Source: an uncultured Candidatus Saccharibacteria bacterium (GTDB lineage: Bacteria; Patescibacteriota; Minisyncoccia; Phycocordibacterales; JAACPR01). From it: DNA of 64,000 bases. The stretch spans positions 18,811-82,810 of the forward strand of contig CAZIEY010000001.1 of assembly GCA_964538855.1 (NCBI GenBank), written 5' to 3'. The notes below the pieces were generated by a model that saw only the letters and a list, made by a program, of their open reading frames with translations, was not told where the DNA came from and made no database searches. Shown here in pieces: positions 2,066 through 40,973 of the stretch (the stretch's first letter is position 1; every line of letters begins with the position of its first letter). The position numbers were made by a program, and so were the translations under genes.

Positions 2066-3475
<1,410 letters not shown>

Positions 3476-5900: not shown

Positions 5901-6290
5901 TTAGTGTGTAATTAATTGTGCTTGTAATCGTCGTAATTGATGTTTGATGCTCGCGTCATACTGAAACCCTCTGTATGTTGCAACGAATCCCCCGATAAGT
6001 TCTCTGTCTGTGTGAAGTTCTATATTCACCGCGTCATCGGCCCGCAACATTTTGGCAATGTCTCGTGTTACTGTTTGATCAATTGGTAACCCAGACATCA
6101 CATGAAGCGTCTCGAAACGCGCATCTCGCGACAGTGCATCGAGCGCAAATCGGAGAGCCCGAATTGCGAGCGTCTCTAACTTATGTTCGGCAATGTAATC
6201 AGTAAAGGCAGCAAGCACATGTTCGTGCGGATGCGTATTCTGTCGAAGTAATTGATACAGCGCTTTGCCAAGTTGTTGTGAAGAAATCAT
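5901..6290 (-). CDS. atpH: F-type ATP synthase delta (OSCP) subunit, short form
   Basis: 129 aa. The C-terminal [25 protein letters not shown] resembles the delta C-terminus, and the gene sits between atpF and atpA. Confidence 0.7.
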
Positions 6291-7953: not shown

Positions 7954-8319
7954 TTATGTCTGGTTAGATATAGATGTTACCACAGTTTTTGCAGCGAGAC
8001 GAGCTTGCTTTATTTGCTCATCCATTGTGCGCAATGTCACTAATTTTTTACGATATGCACGAATTGTAATGGCCCACGAACCGACAAAAGCAAAAAATAA
8101 AAGCACGAGCTGTATGCCCCGTGTTTCAAAAAATATATTAAGTCTTTTTCCTACAAACACTGCCAGAACTGCCGGGATTCCAAAGATGAAAATCGTATTG
8201 AAAGCTAGCCAGAAAAAGCCAGTTATGAAATCATCCCGTCTTTGTTCTAGTTCCTTAACAAGGTCCATAAAATACAAAAATACCCCGATATTATACACGA
8301 AAATGGTCCTTGTGGACAA
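7954..8319 (-). CDS. Small membrane protein heading the ATP synthase operon (AtpI/AtpZ-like); assignment tentative
   Basis: 121 aa with 3-4 transmembrane segments. It lies immediately upstream of atpB on the same strand. Confidence 0.4.
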   Translation of the reverse strand: MSTRTIFVYNIGVFLYFMDLVKELEQRRDDFITGFFWLAFNTIFIFGIPAVLAVFVGKRLNIFFETRGIQLVLLFFAFVGSWAITIRAYRKKLVTLRTMDEQIKQARLAAKTVVTSISNQT

Positions 8320-8495
8320 TGCTTGACAAAAAATGTGGGTGTGATAACGTATTTTGCAGAATTACTGAGTATCACAATTTATGGTCACACTAAACGCAAT
8401 CAAACTACCGACGTGCGTTGGATGTTTGGTCGCTGCCATTATTGAGTGATATTTGGTAATAGATAGAATCCCCAAACAGGATTCGGAAAGGTCAC

Positions 8496-9038
8496 ATGAA
8501 ACGCATCATCACGACGCTTATGACCATCGCCACGGGCTTGACCGCCTACACCGTGGAACCCCAGATCATCGGCACCATCTCCGACAAGGCGACGGGCATC
8601 CAGGATCTCAAGGGCAATCCCATCGTGGCCACCGCCTCGTCCTCGGCCCAGCTCGTGCTGGCCGGCGACAAGGAATCCTACCTGGTCCACCTGTCCATTC
8701 CCCTCAACAACCTGGGCATGGAGGAGGTCGGCCTGGTCTGCAAGGACACCAAGGACGGTGGCATCGCCATCACCGGCGCCATGAACAAGGAGAAGGGTCC
8801 CACCAAAGTGGAACTCAACTCCTACACCACGGACGGCGGATTGCAGATCGTGCTGATCAAGGGCGACACCAAGCAAACGCTGACCATTCCCGACCAGGGA
8901 GTGCGGCAGCAGATGGTGACGCAGCGCAACAAGGCCAGCGGCGAACTGAAATCCAACTTCGCGATCATGCTCGACATGAAGACGAAGTCAACCGCCAGCC
9001 TCGGCCCCGCACCCGCCGGCAATACCTCCGGCACGTAA
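8496..9038 (+). CDS. Hypothetical secreted protein encoded in a strongly GC-rich (about 62% GC) island
   Basis: A signal-peptide-like N-terminus MKRIITTLMTIATGLTAYT. The SD-like GGAAAGG lies 4 nt before the ATG. Codon usage is high-GC (ATC/GGC/ACC), unlike the neighbouring genes. A terminator follows. Confidence 0.55.
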   Translation: MKRIITTLMTIATGLTAYTVEPQIIGTISDKATGIQDLKGNPIVATASSSAQLVLAGDKESYLVHLSIPLNNLGMEEVGLVCKDTKDGGIAITGAMNKEKGPTKVELNSYTTDGGLQIVLIKGDTKQTLTIPDQGVRQQMVTQRNKASGELKSNFAIMLDMKTKSTASLGPAPAGNTSGT

Positions 9039-9039
9039 A

Positions 9040-9110
9040 GCATGGAAGCTCCCCCTAGAGGAGCTGCCCATCACCCCCAACCCTTAACCGGCGAGGGGGT
9101 CTTTTTTTAT
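9040..9110 (+). terminator. Rho-independent terminator after the GC-rich gene
   Basis: A GC stem (ccccc.../gggggtc) is followed by a T7 run at about 9098-9106. Confidence 0.5.
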
Positions 9111-9129
9111 AAAAACCATGTTTTCGACT

Positions 9130-9732
9130 TTACTTACACTCCCCCTCCTCCACATTCAAAACAACTTTTTCAAATCCAGCCATTGTAAACATTGCGGTTA
9201 ATTGCTTCTCCGCATTAGCACGCGCCACCATCAAAATCCCTGCGTCACACGCGGCTTGTCGAATTGAAATTTCAGCTGCGAGACGAGCTTCGGATTCAAG
9301 TTGAGGATCGCCTTTAGTAAAAATCCCGAGCTTGCGGTCATAGACACGAGTTTTTTCGTTGTCCAAACGGCTTACCAAAATTTCAGGGCTCGGCATGTCG
9401 ATTTCGAGGCTCGTGCCAGACACCTTTACATCGCCCGCCTCCAATTTCGCCAAATCAAAACCCGCAATCACATCCGCATGTGCAATGAGCAAAATCTTGT
9501 CGCCATATAAAATGTTTTGAAACGCGTTACCTTGGACGCCACCTTCAATAATTTTCTCGAGCGTAAATGACGCAGTTTCCAAACGATTGAACGACTTAAT
9601 TTCCTTGACCACGCTCGCCTGATTGAGCAAAATTCGCGATTCAGGTCCCGCAAAAAATGAATACAATTTGTAAGCTCCAAGCAAAAGAACAACGAACACA
9701 ATTATCGAGAGAATGTTTTTAAGAATTTTCAT
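9130..9732 (-). CDS. Membrane-anchored protein, DUF4230-like (tentative)
   Basis: 200 aa with an N-terminal transmembrane segment. The overall pattern is similar to DUF4230 proteins as recalled. No enzymatic motif was seen. Confidence 0.45.
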   Translation of the reverse strand: MKILKNILSIIVFVVLLLGAYKLYSFFAGPESRILLNQASVVKEIKSFNRLETASFTLEKIIEGGVQGNAFQNILYGDKILLIAHADVIAGFDLAKLEAGDVKVSGTSLEIDMPSPEILVSRLDNEKTRVYDRKLGIFTKGDPQLESEARLAAEISIRQAACDAGILMVARANAEKQLTAMFTMAGFEKVVLNVEEGECK

Positions 9733-23132: not shown

Positions 23133-23223
23133 TTGAAAATCTTATCATACCTGAATAAAACTCCAATATAAGCTTACACATCAATGCGGATGGGCTTTCC
23201 CACATATTACACGTTATTCACGA

Positions 23224-23252
23224 TTGACAAAATGATTCAAATAGTATATACT
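23224..23252 (+). promoter_or_regulatory. Promoter TTGACA-17-TATACT with a ~95-nt 5' UTR of the cold-shock gene
   Basis: TTGACA at 23224-23229 and TATACT at 23247-23252. Confidence 0.5.
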
Positions 23253-23345
23253 CTACAAATCAAATAAACTTGAGTTAAAGTGCTTCACGCGTTTAATCTT
23301 TAGGTTCATATTTGAGATTTATTCACGTAGTATTAAAGCATAAAA

Positions 23346-23549
23346 ATGAAACAAGGAACAATTGTAAGAATTATGGATAAGGGTTACGGTTTTATCAAAA
23401 CTGACGGAATGGAAAAAGATCTTTTCTTCCACTCTAACGAATTACAAAACGCTCGATTCGACGACCTTAAAGAAGGTATGAAAGTTGAATTCGAAGTTGC
23501 TGACGGCCAAAAAGGTCCACAAGCTGTAAAAGTTACTGTCCTTAGCTAA
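23346..23549 (+). CDS. Cold-shock protein (CspA family)
   Basis: 67 aa. GYGFI and FFH RNA-binding motifs are present. Confidence 0.95.
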   Translation: MKQGTIVRIMDKGYGFIKTDGMEKDLFFHSNELQNARFDDLKEGMKVEFEVADGQKGPQAVKVTVLS

Positions 23550-23561
23550 CTCTACAAACAA

Positions 23562-23596
23562 GAAGCCGCTCGAAAGGGCGGTTTTTTGTTTGTCCT
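23562..23596 (+). terminator. Terminator after csp
   Basis: A short GC stem ccgc...gcgg followed by T6. Confidence 0.45.
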
Positions 23597-23673
23597 CATG
23601 AAAATACAAAAGCCCGCTGCGACGAACTTTTGTATTTGTTCGGCGAGGGCGGGCTTAAAGACTGAAATCATCG

Positions 23674-23934
23674 TCAGGGTTGGGTTCCTTCCGATTCCTC
23701 CAGATGTGCGTTGTTTGCTCGGCAAACTGCCGGGACATCAATTCGGGCGACAGTGATAATTTCCGACTGCATTGACGGCATTCGACTCAACCGCTTACCG
23801 TGTTCTTCGGCGAGCCTATCGCACGCTTCCCGGTCTTTCCCTTCGAAGGTTTTCACTTCGTAGAGTTGACTTTGCTCACCATGCCGCCTGTTGTCAAAAC
23901 GGTACTCGTATCTCACATTGTCATCGGTAGGCAT
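23674..23934 (-). CDS. Hypothetical 86-aa protein in a GC-elevated segment
   Basis: SD GGAGAA lies 6 nt before the ATG. A long imperfect terminator hairpin follows at 23600-23650. Confidence 0.45.
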   Translation of the reverse strand: MPTDDNVRYEYRFDNRRHGEQSQLYEVKTFEGKDREACDRLAEEHGKRLSRMPSMQSEIITVARIDVPAVCRANNAHLEESEGTQP

Positions 23935-24064
23935 CTGGACTTCTCCGTGAGGGGTTTAGTCATAACGACAGCCTAAGGTGCTGTTCAAATGTACAATAAC
24001 ACTTTGTGTATCAAATGTAAATAATTCCCATATTTTGACTACTTCAACCAACAAATTTTGTATT

Positions 24065-33745: not shown

Positions 33746-34711
33746 TTATTTAATCCGCTTCTTAAACTCTTCAATCATCGGCACCTGCTCGGGTTCAGTT
33801 CCATAAATTTTAGCGAGTTCAAGCGTCGTCCAGTCTGCGAGAATAATTGAGTTAAATATCTTTTCCATTTCGCTGTCACCTTCGAGGAAGAGCGAAGTCA
33901 CACCCATGCCCTTTTCCTGATAGAGTGCCTCTGTCGTTTTCATGCGCAATTCGATGCGCTGCGCATCTTTTGAATCATGAAGAAAAATAAAGTGCGTCGA
34001 TACCGAGAGGGCGCGGGTCGCGTCGACGTAATCAAAACCTTGCATTTCATTGTGATTTAGTTCTGGGAAACAATTGTAGAACGAAGGCACCTTACCAGTT
34101 TCATTCATCTTGATTTTCCAAATGTATGCAAGAGCGCGGTTTTGTAGTGAACTGTAAATGACCGGCATTTTACCCGAGAGTGTTTTTGCGATGTCACGAC
34201 CCAGGTCGTGCAACGCTTCTGGTTGTAATACGGAACGCATACTTTCTAATTCAAGAATTAATTCCGGAGCGCAGAGCGTAGCAAGCGCGAGTGACGCAAA
34301 GCCGAGCGCGGCGCGCGGCTGAATACCAGTGTCAGGAATGACGATGTACGGCAAGCCGTTTTCCTTGGCAAATTCAAGCAACTTTCCACCGGTTGTAATG
34401 ACTGCAACATCGTAACCTTTTGAATATGCGGCGTCGGCGAATTCGAGAGTCTCTTCGGTGTTGCCGGAATAAGAGCTCGCAATCAAAAGTGCATTTTGCA
34501 AAAATACGTCATCGTACGCCGGCAACCCATAGTCGCGATGAATATATAAATTGATGCCTGGCTTAAAAATATGAAAAAGTCCTCCAGCTAAATGCGAGCC
34601 GCCCATACCTCCGAGCACGAATGCTTCGTAATCATCTTTTAATCGGTCCCGATTTTGAATCTCGGGCTTGAAATCGAACTGTTCTGCGAATTTTAATATT
34701 GATTCTTCCAT
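33746..34711 (-). CDS. Bifunctional phosphoglucose/phosphomannose isomerase (SIS-domain PGI/PMI family)
   Basis: GGMGGSHLAG and SYSGNTEET SIS blocks. The start is set at the ATG at 34711 (MEESILKF), preceded by TATAAT-6 nt in a leaderless arrangement. The track start at 34729 is also possible. Confidence 0.8.
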   Translation of the reverse strand: MEESILKFAEQFDFKPEIQNRDRLKDDYEAFVLGGMGGSHLAGGLFHIFKPGINLYIHRDYGLPAYDDVFLQNALLIASSYSGNTEETLEFADAAYSKGYDVAVITTGGKLLEFAKENGLPYIVIPDTGIQPRAALGFASLALATLCAPELILELESMRSVLQPEALHDLGRDIAKTLSGKMPVIYSSLQNRALAYIWKIKMNETGKVPSFYNCFPELNHNEMQGFDYVDATRALSVSTHFIFLHDSKDAQRIELRMKTTEALYQEKGMGVTSLFLEGDSEMEKIFNSIILADWTTLELAKIYGTEPEQVPMIEEFKKRIK

Positions 34712-36948: not shown

Positions 36949-37848
36949 TTATTTCTCCCCCACATCATGCCCACCAAACTGATTTCGCAACGCCGAGACG
37001 ACTTTGCCAGTGTAGGTTGGATTGCCGGTTGATTTTTTGCGGAAGTCGAGAGAACCTTTGATGATCGGAGTTTTGACGCCGAACTTACGCGCCGCTTTGA
37101 CGGTCCACTCGCCTTCGCCACTGTGAGAAACTTCGCCAGAAATACCGTTCAATTCAGTTGTATTTTTTGCAAACGCCTGACCGAGCCAACCGACGAGACG
37201 TGATTCGATCACCGACCCGTGATTATAAATTCGCGCCACCTCCGCGAGATCAAAATTAAATTCGGACTTTTTGAGCACTTCGAATCCCTCACCAATCGCC
37301 TGCATCATGCCGTATTCGATGCCGTTGTGCACCATTTTTGCAAAGTGACCCGCGCCCGACGCGCCCATGTACGCAAAGCCCTGCGCAACCGACAAATCCG
37401 CAAAGAGCGGAGTCAATTCGTCGTAGAGAGCCCGTTCGCCACCAATCATGAGACACGCCCCGTTGCGCGCTCCACCCGGACCGCCCGAAGTACCGATGTC
37501 CATAAAGCGAATGCCTTTGCGAGTCAATTTTTTGGCACGCTTGACCGTTTCGGTGTACGGCGAGTTTCCTCCGTCAATCAAAATGTCGCCCTTCGACAAG
37601 AATGGCGCGACCCGTGCAATCATTTCATCGACTGCTTGCCATGGCACCATGAGCCAGACAATTTTGCGCTCGTTGCCGAACTTTTCAAAAATTTCTGCGA
37701 TGCTGTGCGCTGCGATTGCCCCGCGAGTCGCGAGCTGGTCCGCCTTTTCCGGACTGCGATTCCACGCAACCACCTCGTGCCCCTTTTCCAAAAGCCGCTC
37801 CGCCTGCCCCATCCCCATTTTCCCAAGTCCAATGTATGCAATTTTCAT
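36949..37848 (-). CDS. gnd: 6-phosphogluconate dehydrogenase (short, YqeC-like form)
   Basis: MKIAYIGLGKMG Rossmann motif plus 6PGDH-like blocks. The start is moved to the ATG at 37848, which has TATAAT 6 nt upstream. The track start at 37896 adds 16 residues. Confidence 0.8.
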   Translation of the reverse strand: MKIAYIGLGKMGMGQAERLLEKGHEVVAWNRSPEKADQLATRGAIAAHSIAEIFEKFGNERKIVWLMVPWQAVDEMIARVAPFLSKGDILIDGGNSPYTETVKRAKKLTRKGIRFMDIGTSGGPGGARNGACLMIGGERALYDELTPLFADLSVAQGFAYMGASGAGHFAKMVHNGIEYGMMQAIGEGFEVLKKSEFNFDLAEVARIYNHGSVIESRLVGWLGQAFAKNTTELNGISGEVSHSGEGEWTVKAARKFGVKTPIIKGSLDFRKKSTGNPTYTGKVVSALRNQFGGHDVGEK

Positions 37849-37883
37849 GAGGAGATTATAGCATTTTTGGGTTGAGGGATAAG

Positions 37884-37930
37884 GGTTTGTGGACACTTGA
37901 CTATACGTGTATATTATGCTATTATATATT
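37884..37930 (+). repeat. Promoter module R1, GGGTTTGTGGACACTTGACT-N17-TATTAT (copy 1 of 2)
   Basis: TTGACT at 37897-37902. It is nearly identical to the sequence at 39919-39963. Confidence 0.6.
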
Positions 37931-38060
37931 CATAGCCGAATCTTCAAATTCGGTGGACCACCCGAGAATCTGCTCAGGATTCTCATCATGTATCAATCGA
38001 ATATCTCGGTTGTGATGATCCCATTATGGGGAGCGGTAAATCTCTCGAAAGGAGATAAAA

Positions 38061-38408
38061 ATGAGCAACAAGGTAAGAGGAGTCATCGAAAACGCCATCG
38101 GGACAATGCAACTGCGACAAGTTGCATATCAATTCCGAGGAAGGCCCCGTTCGGAACTCCAAGATTTCGTCTTCAACGCAGTCCTTGCGACGACAGTCGC
38201 TCAGATGACTGGAGAAAAAATGGGGGAGCTCTTAGTATACCCTCTATCCCAGTACGAAAAGAGCCCTAGCGTAGGTAAGTTCAATCAGTACGTCACCTAC
38301 GTTGAAGGCGACTACCGTGGCTTCTTGAGGCGCGCGACCGCATTTTATCTCACGTTCAAAATCATGGAAATCATCCGTCCGATGACTGGAGACAATCCCG
38401 AGTCTTAA
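38061..38408 (+). CDS. Hypothetical 115-aa protein driven by promoter module R1
   Basis: GGAG lies 6 nt before the ATG. The 5' leader has two perfect hairpins (ccgaatcttcaaattcgg and gagaatctgctcaggattctc). A terminator lies at 38418-38465. Confidence 0.5.
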   Translation: MSNKVRGVIENAIGTMQLRQVAYQFRGRPRSELQDFVFNAVLATTVAQMTGEKMGELLVYPLSQYEKSPSVGKFNQYVTYVEGDYRGFLRRATAFYLTFKIMEIIRPMTGDNPES

Positions 38409-38417
38409 CTGGCTCAC

Positions 38418-38465
38418 CCACCCGCAAACGGAAAGCACTTTGCTTTCCAGCGGGTGTTTTCTTTT
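38418..38465 (+). terminator. Intrinsic terminator
   Basis: acccgc...gcgggt stem with an internal hairpin, followed by TTTTCTTTT. Confidence 0.5.
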
Positions 38466-38473
38466 GTCTAAAG

Positions 38474-39883
38474 TTACTTGAGTCTTTTCACTGCTTCCAC
38501 CTCACTCCCCCTCTCATACACGCCGAGCTTCACTTTTTTCACGGCTTCCATCACTTTTGAAATCAGGCGCCACTGCAAAGCGACTTCTTCGGTGCTCGTG
38601 AACAATGTTTGATCGCCGAGAATGCAGTCGTAGAGAACTTTTTCATACGCGTCGGACAGCATCGACATGCCGGACTCATATTTGAATGAGAGCGTTTTTT
38701 CTTCGAGCCCAAATGCGAGCCCAGGAGTTTTCTTCCAAAACGAAACGGAGATATTTTCTTCGGGCTGAACGTTGATAGTGATTGTGTTGCCATAGTGACA
38801 AATGTCGTCGACTGGGCAGACGCAACTTTCTTCCTCGCGGAATGTGATTTTTATTTGCACCAGATTTTTAGAAAGCGCCTTGCCATAGGTAATCAAAAAC
38901 GGCACGTTTTTCCAGCGGCGGTTTGCGACGTTCAATTTGAGCTCGAAAAATGTTTCGGTCGTCGAGTCTGGTTTAACGCCGGCTTCGTTCGTGTAGCCTG
39001 CATATTGTGCCACACGAATAAATTCGTCGGGAGTGCGGCTGGCTGGGACAATGTCCGCCAAAACTCGTGCGCGCGCTGTGCGGATTTTGTCGGCGGTGAT
39101 TCCCTGTGGATCTTCCATCGCGATCAAGGCGAGCATTTGCAAAATGTGATTTTGTCCGACGTCACGGAGGGCCCCGATTGGATCATAAAAATTCCCACGC
39201 TCTGACACCGTGTTTGTCTCGAGAAAATTAATTTCGACGCGATCAATCAAATCACGATTCCAAATCGGCCCAAAAATCGGATTCGCAAAACGAAACGCGA
39301 TGATGTTTTGGAGAGCTTCTTTTGCTAAATAATGATCAATGCGGAACACTTGGTTTTCATCGAACAATTTCCCGAGCAATTTATCGAGCCGAAGCGCACC
39401 TTCTGGGTCGCTGCCGAATGGTTTTTCTACGAGCACGCGTGTCCACGTCCCCTCTGCATGTTTGTCGCACGGCGTCACCAAATTCGCCTCGTCGATGTGC
39501 GTGAAGACCGGCTCATACAAATGCGGTGGCACTGCGAGATAGAAGAGTTTGTTCGTGCAGACGCCGATTCGTTCGTCCGTCTTTTTCAAGTACGCACCGA
39601 GATTGTCGTAACTCTCAGTTGTGTTGATGTCGCCTTGGACGTAGCGGAAATTTTCAACAAAAGTTTTCATAAGACTCGCGTCGATGTTTGGTCGCTTTTT
39701 CAAAAGCGAATCAGTCACGAATTTTTGATAGTCGGCGTCCGACAGCGGTTTACGCGAAAATCCAACAATAGTCACTGTGCTCGGCAAAAGATGCTTGGAA
39801 TATAAATCAAAAAGCGCCGAAAAAATCTTGTTCTGCGCGAGGTCGCCTGTGCCGCCGAAGATGACGAATGTGATGGGTTTCAT
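38474..39883 (-). CDS. zwf: Glucose-6-phosphate dehydrogenase
   Basis: N-terminal FVIFGGTGDLA NADP motif, plus the RIDHYLGKE-like block (DHYLAKE). The start is at the ATG at 39883 (MKPITF), with TACAAT 8 nt upstream. The track ORF extends to 39994. Confidence 0.88.
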   Translation of the reverse strand: MKPITFVIFGGTGDLAQNKIFSALFDLYSKHLLPSTVTIVGFSRKPLSDADYQKFVTDSLLKKRPNIDASLMKTFVENFRYVQGDINTTESYDNLGAYLKKTDERIGVCTNKLFYLAVPPHLYEPVFTHIDEANLVTPCDKHAEGTWTRVLVEKPFGSDPEGALRLDKLLGKLFDENQVFRIDHYLAKEALQNIIAFRFANPIFGPIWNRDLIDRVEINFLETNTVSERGNFYDPIGALRDVGQNHILQMLALIAMEDPQGITADKIRTARARVLADIVPASRTPDEFIRVAQYAGYTNEAGVKPDSTTETFFELKLNVANRRWKNVPFLITYGKALSKNLVQIKITFREEESCVCPVDDICHYGNTITINVQPEENISVSFWKKTPGLAFGLEEKTLSFKYESGMSMLSDAYEKVLYDCILGDQTLFTSTEEVALQWRLISKVMEAVKKVKLGVYERGSEVEAVKRLK

Positions 39884-39918
39884 ATGGGAATATTGTAGCA
39901 TTTTGATGCTTATTTTTA

Positions 39919-39963
39919 AGGGTTTATGGACACTTGACTTTATAGATATATATGCTATTATAA
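39919..39963 (+). repeat. Promoter module R2, GGGTTTATGGACACTTGACT-N16-TATTAT (copy 2 of 2)
   Basis: TTGACT at 39934-39939. It is back-to-back with the zwf promoter. Confidence 0.6.
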
Positions 39964-40032
39964 GAACAAGGGAGTTTCGCTTACTCCACAACAAGGTCCA
40001 CAGACCGCAAAAGCGAGAAAGGAGAATAAACC

Positions 40033-40152
40033 ATGAAAAGACTCATCTGCGCTGTTGCTATCATCGCCACAATGGCGAGTTGCAGCGCCCCGCGCGGGGA
40101 GAAAATCCCCGGGATGGTGTGGGAGAAATCCCATGTCCCGTCGATGCCGTAG
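40033..40152 (+). CDS. 39-aa putative secreted or lipo-peptide (MKRLICAVAIIATMASC...) driven by module R2
   Basis: AAAGGAG SD lies 8 nt before the ATG. A signal-peptide-like N-terminus has a Cys after the hydrophobic core. GC-rich. A double-hairpin terminator follows at 40153-40206. Confidence 0.35.
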   Translation: MKRLICAVAIIATMASCSAPRGEKIPGMVWEKSHVPSMP

Positions 40153-40206
40153 AACCCCCACGGGGGTCTTACGTCAGCGCCCTGATCACTCGGGGCGTTT
40201 TTTATT
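40153..40206 (+). terminator. Intrinsic terminator (two GC hairpins plus T6)
   Basis: cccccacggggg and gcgccc...ggggcg followed by TTTTTT. Confidence 0.5.
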
Positions 40207-40223
40207 TAAAATACAAGAATCAA

Positions 40224-40973
40224 TTACTTTTCCTTCCTCGTCTCCAACACCCGCGTCATACAATACGCACAATGTTCGCACGTTTTGCTGCGCGCCGGAA
40301 TTTTTGGAGAGTCCAATAGTTTTTTAATATCGACGATTATTGCTTCAACCCAATCAGGATTACCTGTGTACGGATGAAGTGTCAATTCAAAATCGAGCCG
40401 CTCTGCGAATTCATCTCGATTCACGAGCGCGTTTGCATACACAAAATATCCGGTGTCGGCGACCTTGAAACCTTTTTGTCGCAACAACCATTGATAAATT
40501 TCCATTTGGCGTTTGTAGCCGTCTTTCCAGGTGTCGTCCATATTAACCCCCTCTTCTTTGCTGGTGGCTTTGTAATCCACGATGATGAGCTCGCCCGCGG
40601 GATTCACCCACAAATCATCGACTGCGCCCGACACGACCAAGCCGGTCGGTTTATGCACAATTTGCACGCCTTCGAAATTTTCGCGCCACGTCGCCAATTC
40701 TTTGTGAGCAAATGGTACTGCATCGACACCGTGCTCAACCATTATTGGATGAGGTTTTTGCGCCGCGCGATATGTATCGAATTCTTTTTTCAATAACATG
40801 TCGACAGCATTGTTGATATTAAACGGAGGCATCGACGGACGGCGAATTCCCATTTTATTATCCAAATAGAAACAGCGCGGACATTCCAAAAACATCGCGA
40901 TTTTCGAGCGACTCAATTTCCAATTCGAACCGCCATAATTCCAGCCGGGGTGGCGCTTTTTGTATTCTTGCAT
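40224..40973 (-). CDS. PD-(D/E)XK nuclease superfamily protein, Cas4-like, with a four-Cys cluster
   Basis: N-terminal CPRCFY and C-terminal CEHCAYC Cys pairs, as in Cas4/AddB Fe-S nucleases. IVDYK fits D-x(n)-(D/E)xK. Confidence 0.65.
   Translation of the reverse strand: MQEYKKRHPGWNYGGSNWKLSRSKIAMFLECPRCFYLDNKMGIRRPSMPPFNINNAVDMLLKKEFDTYRAAQKPHPIMVEHGVDAVPFAHKELATWRENFEGVQIVHKPTGLVVSGAVDDLWVNPAGELIIVDYKATSKEEGVNMDDTWKDGYKRQMEIYQWLLRQKGFKVADTGYFVYANALVNRDEFAERLDFELTLHPYTGNPDWVEAIIVDIKKLLDSPKIPARSKTCEHCAYCMTRVLETRKEK

Follow-up and report, generated by a model that had tools for sequence, protein, structure and literature searches.

Predicted divergent promoters duplicated at gnd and zwf in a Patescibacteria genome, with exchangeable small genes behind them

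Introduction

Nearly all Patescibacteria (the candidate phyla radiation) are uncultured, most have few recognisable regulators, and the control of their transcription is little known. To our knowledge, few regulatory RNAs have been characterised from the group. We describe here a control region found twice in the genome of one member, an uncultured Candidatus Saccharibacteria bacterium: one copy lies beside gnd (6-phosphogluconate dehydrogenase) and the other beside zwf (glucose-6-phosphate dehydrogenase). Both are contained in a stretch of 64,000 nucleotides, called the window below (contig CAZIEY010000001.1 of assembly GCA_964538855.1, positions 18,811 to 82,810). Each copy holds a predicted promoter for the metabolic gene, back to back with an outward promoter that faces a small open reading frame (ORF).

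Several kinds of described systems come close to this arrangement. Classic back-to-back divergent regions separate a regulator from its target, or join supercoiling-coupled pairs such as ilvY-ilvC. In bidirectional promoters with overlapping -10 elements, the start sites are spaced by roughly 18 bp. Replacement-type flexible genomic islets are located between conserved core genes. Prokaryotic bidirectional promoters have been described as having pseudo-symmetrical overlapping -10 elements (PMC12825309, PMC10268837). The term “putative mobile promoters” has been applied to upstream regions of at least 50 nt that are at least 80% identical while their flanking coding sequences do not align (Matus-Garcia, Nijveen and van Passel 2012, PMC3488235), and in that survey the commonest families had two members (PMC3488235). 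The gnd and zwf copies resemble each of these in part. With moderate confidence, we read them as paralogous control regions resident at their loci, with exchangeable cargo and a probable shared regulator site, and not as a mobile element.

Two copies of one control region

The original prediction, a note made from the sequence alone, had described a duplicated, almost identical promoter module, and sequence comparison finds both copies at the positions it gave. They share two blocks. The first is the 23-nt block TAAGGGTTTRTGGACACTTGACT, identical at 22 of 23 positions in copies 2037 nt apart (TAAGGGTTTGTGGACACTTGACT at 37880-37902 and TAAGGGTTTATGGACACTTGACT at 39917-39939; consensus TAAGGGTTT[G/A]TGGACACTTGACT). 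The second, TATGCTATTATA, is the same at all 12 positions (37915-37926 and 39951-39962). “Almost identical” is too strong for the copies: the spacers between the -35 and -10 elements measure 17 and 16 nt and differ at about half of their bases. The similarity is blocky, being concentrated in the functional blocks, and the stretch left of the main block is largely different between the copies. It also runs further left than had been noted, to ATTRTAGCATTTT (written ATT[A/G]TAGCATTTT); on the minus strand, this extension is the predicted extended -10 element (TGCTAYAAT) of gnd (37855-37863) and of zwf (39892-39900). Local alignment covers 80 columns at 75% identity, and its best 50-column stretch is exactly 80.0% identical. 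The score of 39 compares with 10.4 ± 1.9, and a maximum of 20, in 2000 shuffles. This is far beyond chance, and the two regions share ancestry instead of a generic promoter resemblance; a duplication had indeed occurred. Apart from the module itself, a repeat search of the window found nothing longer than 23 nt in common among the four genes. Those on the left, gnd and zwf, belong to different Pfam families, and the 115-amino-acid (aa) and 39-aa ORFs on the right are unrelated to each other.

An assembly duplication artefact, which had been named as a possible refutation, has a virtually nil probability. No evidence supporting it was found. The copies are only 75% identical, with different spacer lengths and unique flanks, and the relatives share the architecture. 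Independent assembly SRR13208906 contains both copies and SRR26856460 contains copy 1; recovery from other sequencing runs excludes the artefact.

The features of the locus, in the order of their coordinates in the window, are the following.

36949-37848, minus strand: gnd, a short decarboxylating 6-phosphogluconate dehydrogenase of 299 aa (Pfam NAD_binding_2 2e-41, 6PGD 1e-18)
37855-37863, minus strand: extended -10 TGCTATAAT, predicted leaderless gnd promoter, with the ATG at the 7th base after the hexamer TATAAT
37880-37902, plus strand: shared block, copy 1, TAAGGGTTTGTGGACAC with the -35 hexamer TTGACT (37897-37902) of the outward promoter
37915-37926, plus strand: extended -10 of outward promoter 1, TATGCTATTATA, hexamer at 37920-37925, 17-nt spacer
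37932-38060, plus strand: structured 5' leader of 129 nt, five or six predicted hairpins
38061-38408, plus strand: 115-aa ORF, no detectable family, predicted all-helical
38419-38467, plus strand: intrinsic terminator of the 115-aa unit, hairpin at 38419-38456 and then a U-run (-23.1 kcal/mol, z = -4.7)
38474-39883, minus strand: zwf, glucose-6-phosphate dehydrogenase of 469 aa (Pfam G6PD_C 5e-80, G6PD_N 9e-55)
39892-39900, minus strand: extended -10 TGCTACAAT, predicted near-leaderless zwf promoter, with the ATG at the 9th base after TACAAT
39917-39939, plus strand: shared block, copy 2, TAAGGGTTTATGGACAC with the -35 hexamer TTGACT (39934-39939)
39951-39962, plus strand: extended -10 of outward promoter 2, TATGCTATTATA, hexamer at 39956-39961, 16-nt spacer
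39968-40032, plus strand: leader of the 39-aa ORF, 65 nt, weakly structured (z = -0.8)
40033-40152, plus strand: 39-aa ORF with a signal peptide and a lipobox-like MASC (MKRLICAVAIIATMAS followed by C), read from sequence
40176-40205, plus strand: intrinsic terminator of the 39-aa unit, a 10-bp stem and then TTTTTT (z = -3.7)
40224-40973, minus strand: PD-(D/E)XK nuclease gene, next after the 39-aa unit

The 115-aa ORF thus lies between gnd and zwf and the 39-aa ORF upstream of zwf, both on the plus strand. The architecture is much as had been proposed. Each copy adjoins a leaderless-type promoter, its box 6-8 nt before the ATG of gnd (37848) or zwf (39883), and faces a short unit equipped with a putative ribosome-binding site and a predicted terminator (z = -4.7 and -3.7). 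The ribosome-binding site from which the small ORFs would be translated is GAAAGGAGA for both, with the AGGAG 8 nt upstream of the 39-aa ORF. The two perfect hairpins announced for the leader of the 115-aa ORF are present, along with three or four more, and the 39-aa product reads as the signal peptide or lipopeptide that had been suggested. The rightward promoter is near-consensus (TTGACT, 16-17 nt, TGCTATTAT), with predicted starts near 37932 and 39968. From the left -10 to the right -35 there are 36 bp, and the predicted start sites stand ~84 bp apart, or eight helical turns. A run of 17 bp, AAGGGTTTRTGGACAC, covers the two -35 positions and what lies between them, at about -34 to -49 of the predicted gnd start and -36 to -51 of the predicted outward start. 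A symmetric bidirectional promoter does not describe this region, which has two separate -10 hexamers 59-60 bp apart and predicted starts 82-84 bp apart.

Starts of the type TATAAT-N6-8-ATG are common in the window (e.g. 34711, 35377, 35999, 40973, 42126, 44376, 51861). Since they recur at so many gene starts, leaderless initiation looks like the norm in this organism, and would be ordinary at gnd and zwf. The two small ORFs are unusual in this genome in having classical ribosome-binding sites in place of the default leaderless start.

Base composition is elevated across the whole block. As had been noticed, the guanine-plus-cytosine (GC) content is raised here, to 0.47-0.51 in the stretch at 37-41 kb from a mean of 0.42 over the window. 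At third codon positions it reaches 0.52-0.75 in gnd, the 115-aa ORF, zwf, the 39-aa ORF and the PD-(D/E)XK gene, versus 0.31-0.37 in the next genes. The small genes, which had been called GC-rich, are elevated only in the way that their gnd, zwf and PD-(D/E)XK neighbours are.

Conserved geometry in related genomes

Close relatives were gathered through zwf and gnd homologues. The organism belongs to the Patescibacteria, and its zwf relatives are metagenome-assembled genomes labelled Paceibacteria or Saccharibacteria. Nucleotide identity in zwf is 91% between the window and L088, 92% between L090 and L092, and ~80% between these pairs; L003, L091, L097 and L094-96 are ~70% identical to the window. 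The back-to-back arrangement is found at gnd in the window, L088, L090 and L092, and at zwf in the window, L088, L092 and L003/L091. Eight modules from five genomes place 35-37 nt between the left -10 and the right -35, six of them exactly 36, and the predicted start sites are 82-84 bp apart throughout. Over gnd and zwf together, seven related genomes have this geometry at one of the genes or at both. This geometry is kept even where the sequence of the gap has diverged (L088 zwf, L003 zwf, L092). The gnd start, MKIAYIGLGKMG, is conserved among the relatives. The -10 box of gnd and its spacing are the same in L088, L090, L092, L093 and L003, as are the -10 box of zwf and its 8-nt spacing in L088, L090, L092 and L003.

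The sequence inside this frame has a more uneven history. The 17-bp block of copy 1 is identical in L088 and matches at 16 of 17 positions in L090. At zwf, the block sequence occurs in this genome only: L088, L092 and L003 have a diverged sequence of the same length, and L090 has nothing. The gnd and zwf copies of L092 resemble each other in a different sub-segment, GCATTTTTGGGTT.A.G.ATA. Because the copies of L092 are also alike and the geometry is common to the relatives, the duplication of the control region predates this clade, patches of it being kept or homogenised differently by lineage.

Some genomes lack the outward promoter. It is absent at zwf in L090, where the stop codon of the PD-(D/E)XK gene abuts AAAATGCTACAAT, at gnd in L093, and at gnd in L003, where a reverse-transcriptase gene contains the -10 box within its 3' end. 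Since these three loci do without them, the block and the partner promoter are not essential for gnd and zwf transcription.

Selection on the promoter region and its shared block

Identity at the four-fold degenerate sites of gnd and zwf serves as a neutral yardstick. Between the window and L088 (neutral 0.73), all 53 positions from the gnd ATG to TTGAC are identical (P = 5e-8), including the 17/17 of the block. Between the window and L090 (neutral 0.53), the promoter part agrees at 66 of 78 positions (P = 3e-9) and the block at 16 of 17 (P = 3e-4). In L092 (neutral 0.61), the 32 nt next to gnd are all unchanged (P = 1e-7). By this measure, the block appears to be constrained in some lineages and not in others.

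These observations can be assembled into a model. Each copy would hold two promoters of the sigma-70 type, pointing away from each other with a constant distance between them. The leftward one would be a -35-independent extended -10 promoter (TGCTAYAAT), from which the gnd and zwf mRNAs would start at the ATG or 2 nt before it, and so be leaderless. The near-consensus rightward promoter would fire into a short unit with its own ribosome-binding site and terminator. We infer that AAGGGTTTRTGGACAC is a cis-element common to both copies. Located at about -42 relative to either start, it would most likely be bound by a single regulator. A regulator bound there would set the balance of the two directions, and would tie gnd and zwf expression together. 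Both regions would go back to a single sequence that had been duplicated by the time of the small clade's ancestor, their similarity being maintained by selection on the promoter parts and possibly by gene conversion. Finally, the outward promoter would act as a fixed expression site, with cargo exchangeable behind it at junctions at or near the promoter.

Several points weigh against this model. All its promoters and start sites are predictions. In L092 the block agrees with that of the window at 11 of 17 positions, no different from the neutral 0.61, and it is missing in L093, L097, the gnd side of L003 and the zwf side of L090; since these do without it, the block is dispensable for the promoter function of gnd and zwf. 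AAGGGTTTRTGGACAC has no clear dyad or direct-repeat symmetry beyond a weak GTG..CAC dyad in copy 1 only. No candidate regulator was identified, although no systematic search for one was made. At zwf the block occurs in this genome only, so co-regulation could be specific to the lineage, or the block a gene-conversion tract without regulatory meaning. The count of two copies of the block comes from ~81 kb of the genome, the contig being 388 kb long.

It is possible, if rather doubtful, that the block has no function of its own. The control regions would then be old duplicates in which only the -35 and extended -10 elements are selected, and the 23-nt identity would come from chance retention or from gene conversion over a short tract. 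In L092, both copies have drifted at the neutral rate in their block positions, and the other sub-segment shared by its two copies gives the patchiness expected of intragenomic conversion. The block is dispensable in L093, L097 and L003, and lacks the symmetry typical of operators. Such a reading has to face the 17/17 and 16/17 matches in L088 and L090, where neutral identity would be 73% and 53%, and the fact that in L090 the spacer left of the block has changed and the block has not.

Candidates for the cognate factor were also considered. The divergent ORF cannot be a regulator that binds the block, because its sequence changes while the block stays: the ORF is replaced in L088 and only 22% identical in L090. 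Likenesses considered for the block (CRP-like, HexR-like, marbox, sigma-54 -24/-12, and DnaA boxes at 7/9 and 6/9) have an unfit spacing or are no better than chance. The two copies of the block in the window precede the two oxidative pentose-phosphate genes, gnd and zwf; the PGI-like gene (33746-34711) and the rest of the window have none.

The GTGGAC core of the block recurs, in either orientation, early in three outward transcripts: at 37955-37962 (GGTGGACC), at 39996-40002 (GGTCCAC), and just after the -10 in the zwf-side leader of L092 (GGTGGACC). It could be a second operator half-site or chance, these being 6- to 8-mer matches to a 6-mer chosen post hoc.

Exchange of genes behind the outward promoter

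A comparison of the gnd-zwf junction in related genomes, proposed in the original prediction, finds the promoter pair resident and the cargo replaced. Between the window and L088, homology breaks off exactly behind TTGAC and is restored from the stop codon of zwf onward; an unrelated 127-aa gene occupies the interval in L088. The slot is small (0.3-2.5 kb). The contents of the two slots are given below by genome.

zwf-gnd slot, window: 115-aa ORF with the 129-nt leader
zwf-gnd slot, L090: 112-aa ORF with the same leader
zwf-gnd slot, L088: 127-aa ORF
zwf-gnd slot, L092: 238-aa ORF
zwf-gnd slot, L097: 137-aa called ORF
zwf-gnd slot, L093: same-strand membrane protein, without an outward promoter
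zwf-gnd slot, L003, L076/L094, L091, L095 and L096: diversity-generating retroelement, or the part of it covered by the contig
zwf-upstream slot, window: 39-aa lipobox ORF
zwf-upstream slot, L092: 64-aa hydrophobic ORF, two membrane spans by eye
zwf-upstream slot, L003/L091: 60-aa hydrophobic ORF, two membrane spans by eye
zwf-upstream slot, L088: ~65-nt terminated transcript (predicted)
zwf-upstream slot, L090: nothing

Searches of Pfam and PHROGs gave no match for any of the cargo proteins. The 115-aa protein found only itself in a word-indexed search of 5.8 billion proteins and in an exhaustive phmmer search of 1.84 billion representatives. Its single-sequence AF2 (AlphaFold2) model is of low confidence (predicted local distance difference test, pLDDT, 57). 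The GC pattern by codon position resembles that of the neighbouring genes, and the ORF looks coding. The 39-aa ORF does not occur in the protein collection or in any relative, and the whole unit is absent from L088 and L090; its 65-nt leader has no counterpart in any relative. This ORF is putative, the signs of its reality being the ribosome-binding site, signal peptide, lipobox and terminator. Across the same unit, in another frame, a public gene caller has placed a 137-aa ORF (L001 2607-3020, equivalent to ~39906-40319 of the window, plus strand). It is probably spurious, because it starts upstream of the predicted promoter and overlaps the 3' end of the PD-(D/E)XK gene.

Could the module itself be what moves? 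The original prediction had suggested a mobile promoter-cassette unit, that is, a promoter with or without its small gene, copying in the manner of a miniature inverted-repeat transposable element (MITE), an outward promoter derived from an insertion sequence (IS), or a gene cassette. Putative mobile promoters are recognised operationally by similar promoter regions flanked on either side by non-homologous genes (PMC3488235), as here; the flanking genes at the gnd/zwf pair do not align, and the best 50-column stretch lies at exactly 80.0%. Moreover, the 39-aa unit with its promoter is an insertion/deletion difference from L088 and L090, and the cargo junctions coincide with the promoter. The rest of the evidence makes mobility very unlikely. 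No terminal inverted repeats were found around either unit, which also argues against a MITE or an IS-derived promoter, and the window holds no inverted copy of the block (up to 3 mismatches). No transposase or integrase adjoins the module, nor does an integron-type integrase; its neighbours are gnd, zwf, the PD-(D/E)XK nuclease, a DAO oxidoreductase, an ATP-grasp protein and an NYN protein. The same module is found with the same geometry at the same two loci in the relatives, and is therefore vertically inherited.

The search for further copies that had been suggested was run over the window and 17.2 kb of flanks, ~81 kb in all, and found no third copy of the block there. Looser matches in the window are few: three for GGACACTTGACT with up to 2 mismatches (3.35 expected) and three for AAGGGTTTNTGGACAC with up to 3 (1.8 expected). 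Only the two exact copies are meaningful. A scan of Joint Genome Institute (JGI) metagenome contigs for GGGTTTNTGGACACTTGAC, the block with its -35, gave no related copy; its five matches are taken as chance because all are in unrelated contexts (GC 0.33-0.60). Viral contigs scanned for the block and for one leader hairpin gave nothing, and a blastn search of a phage collection with the module and the 115-aa unit gave no match. That the motif might be a generic -35 element had been named as another way to refute the idea. Eight other strong TTGACA/TATAAT promoters of the window do not carry the block, so it is not something that strong promoters generally have upstream.

Two specific mechanisms of exchange were also rejected. 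Site-specific recombination at the block is contradicted by break points that differ by genome pair (after TTGAC in L088, after GCATTTTT in L093). An integron-type gene cassette is contradicted by these variable break points, by the ordinary neighbouring genes, and by the 3' ends of both units, which are ordinary terminators.

Accessory genes occur around the slots in several relatives. The retroelement lies at L003 7570-10078 and L076/L094 966-3045, and also in L091, L095 and L096. Its description comes from L003 and L076/L094, the contigs of the other three covering only part of it. The target protein ends ...YLYWNGDAWN...NPAARVRK, with the template repeat ~300 nt downstream, an Avd-like 115-aa gene is on the opposite strand, and the stop codon of the reverse transcriptase lies inside the gnd TATAAT box. 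At this position, the window has the 115-aa ORF without known family. Upstream of zwf, toxin-antitoxin genes flank the PD-(D/E)XK gene on one side or the other (L092 1746-2135, PemK; L003 4237-4794; L091 4285-4824). A YafQ toxin is among them, and an unannotated small ORF upstream may be its antitoxin. Because relatives have them in this same neighbourhood, the whole stretch stands out as an accessory-gene hotspot.

A small unit is shared by L088 (~5950-6060, minus strand) and L092 (~2140-2235, minus strand), and is absent from the window. It consists of TTGACT, 16-17 nt, TATAAT, ~65 nt and a terminator hairpin. The two versions are identical at 85 of 96 positions, with an A-U to G-C change in the stem. 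The unit adjoins the 3' end of the PD-(D/E)XK gene in L088 and that of the PemK toxin gene in L092. It may be a small RNA.

A conserved leader before a divergent gene

The 129-nt leader of the 115-aa ORF is the most unusual feature of the locus, and a candidate new cis-regulatory RNA. Between the window (37932-38060) and L090 (4752-4880, minus strand), the sequence from the -10 through the leader to the first three codons (MSN) is 97.6% identical (122/125; P = 3e-30 against the neutral rate). The flanking genes are much less similar (zwf 80%, gnd 77%, PD-(D/E)XK 86%), and directly after codon 3 the DNA cannot be aligned. The 115- and 112-aa proteins encoded behind it are 22% identical over 74 residues, co-linear and with similar ends (shuffle z = 3.4, p = 0.007), and both genomes retain an ORF of similar length.

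The predicted fold has five or six hairpins, the last of which would pair with the ribosome-binding site (GGAGAU), for a minimum free energy of -39.9 kcal/mol (z = -1.9). The same fold is predicted for L090. The 3 substitutions and 2 indels that separate them fall at positions unpaired in the window fold (loops, an internal loop and the spacer before the AUG), and two of the substitutions add base pairs in L090; this comparison of two sequences has no power to detect covariation. An upstream ORF in the leader is rejected, as the only ATG there, at 37988, is ATA in L090. In Rfam (15), neither 37932-38060 nor 39968-40032 is overlapped by any match, even when E values up to 10 are allowed, and at gathering score the whole window yields no family, not even a tRNA. 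The conserved segment has sharp edges, running from the -10 as far as the start codon. This favours an RNA element under selection over a recent recombination tract, because a tract ending at that codon would find no homology in which to resolve.

The leader also bears on the role of the outward promoter, which might itself serve gnd and zwf. In that case, a strong divergent promoter at a fixed 84-bp phasing would raise or gate the output of the weak promoter that has no -35, either by transcription-driven negative supercoiling or by RNA-polymerase competition, and its transcript would be irrelevant and so swappable. The geometry is indeed conserved while the cargo is unrelated in every genome, all cargo proteins are without known family, and the zwf-side cargo of L088 is just a ~65-nt terminated RNA. 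This account is nonetheless unlikely: the same -10 box does without a divergent promoter at zwf in L090 and at gnd in L093 and L003, and the extreme constraint on the 129-nt leader indicates that the outward transcript matters.

A more far-reaching reading, speculative and somewhat unlikely, is that the locus is an undescribed regulatory module of this lineage of Patescibacteria. It would combine phase-locked divergent promoters and a regulator site with a 129-nt leader RNA without Rfam match and, under the control of that leader, a fast-diversifying small helical protein, possibly involved in conflict or host interaction. The zwf-gnd slot would be a dedicated site of diversification. If so, one lineage fills it with a diversity-generating retroelement and another with a leader-controlled hypervariable gene.

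Other features of the window

The GC maximum of the window is at 8001-9500 (0.50-0.55 against a mean of 0.42), above that of the gnd-zwf block. The 932 nt at 23133-24064 contain no ORF of at least 90 aa, and a strong TTGACA-17-TATACT promoter stands at 23224. Two further consensus promoters, at 466 and 1338 on the plus strand, are not directly followed by any obvious long ORF. These three promoters may drive small genes or RNAs.

Comparison with known systems

The locus resembles putative mobile promoters (PMC3488235) in having homologous upstream sequence before non-homologous genes of one genome, in a family of two members. It differs in that the gnd/zwf pair is exactly on the threshold (80.0% over 50 columns, 75% over 80), is shared vertically at the same loci, and covers two promoters at once. 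With divergent regions that share a regulator site, it has in common outward promoters less than 100 bp apart and a conserved non-promoter segment at about -42 of both; here, however, there is no adjacent regulator gene, and the partner is an exchangeable ORF without family. Divergent transcription from one short intergenic region recalls bidirectional promoters (PMC12825309, PMC10268837), but the -10 elements are separate and the predicted starts ~84 bp apart.

As in flexible genomic islets, gnd with its promoter block and the stop codon of zwf bracket a slot of varying content, with toxin-antitoxin genes and a retroelement in the same neighbourhood of relatives. Unlike them, the slot is very small (0.3-2.5 kb), and its content always comes behind a conserved resident promoter. 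The leader is like those that sequester a ribosome-binding site (riboswitches, RNA thermometers, protein-binding leaders), in that its last predicted stem pairs GGAGAU and its conservation is far above neutral. It differs in its lack of an Rfam match over 129 nt, in being represented by two sequences only, and in the family-less gene behind it. If the leader turns out to act as a sensor RNA, it would represent a new class of regulatory RNA.

Promoter regions that are propagated or paralogous, and small islets of variable content, are both known; the phenomenon belongs with them, and current understanding is not overturned. What the locus offers is a concrete case of predicted leaderless extended -10 promoters at two central-metabolism genes, with a divergent partner in fixed phase and a 17-bp element that appears to be under purifying selection. 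It also gives a single-locus view of a strong resident promoter as a landing pad for family-less genes exchanged between close relatives. The points of interest are therefore the fixed phasing, the constraint on a 17-bp element outside the promoters, and the conserved leader before a hyper-divergent ORF.

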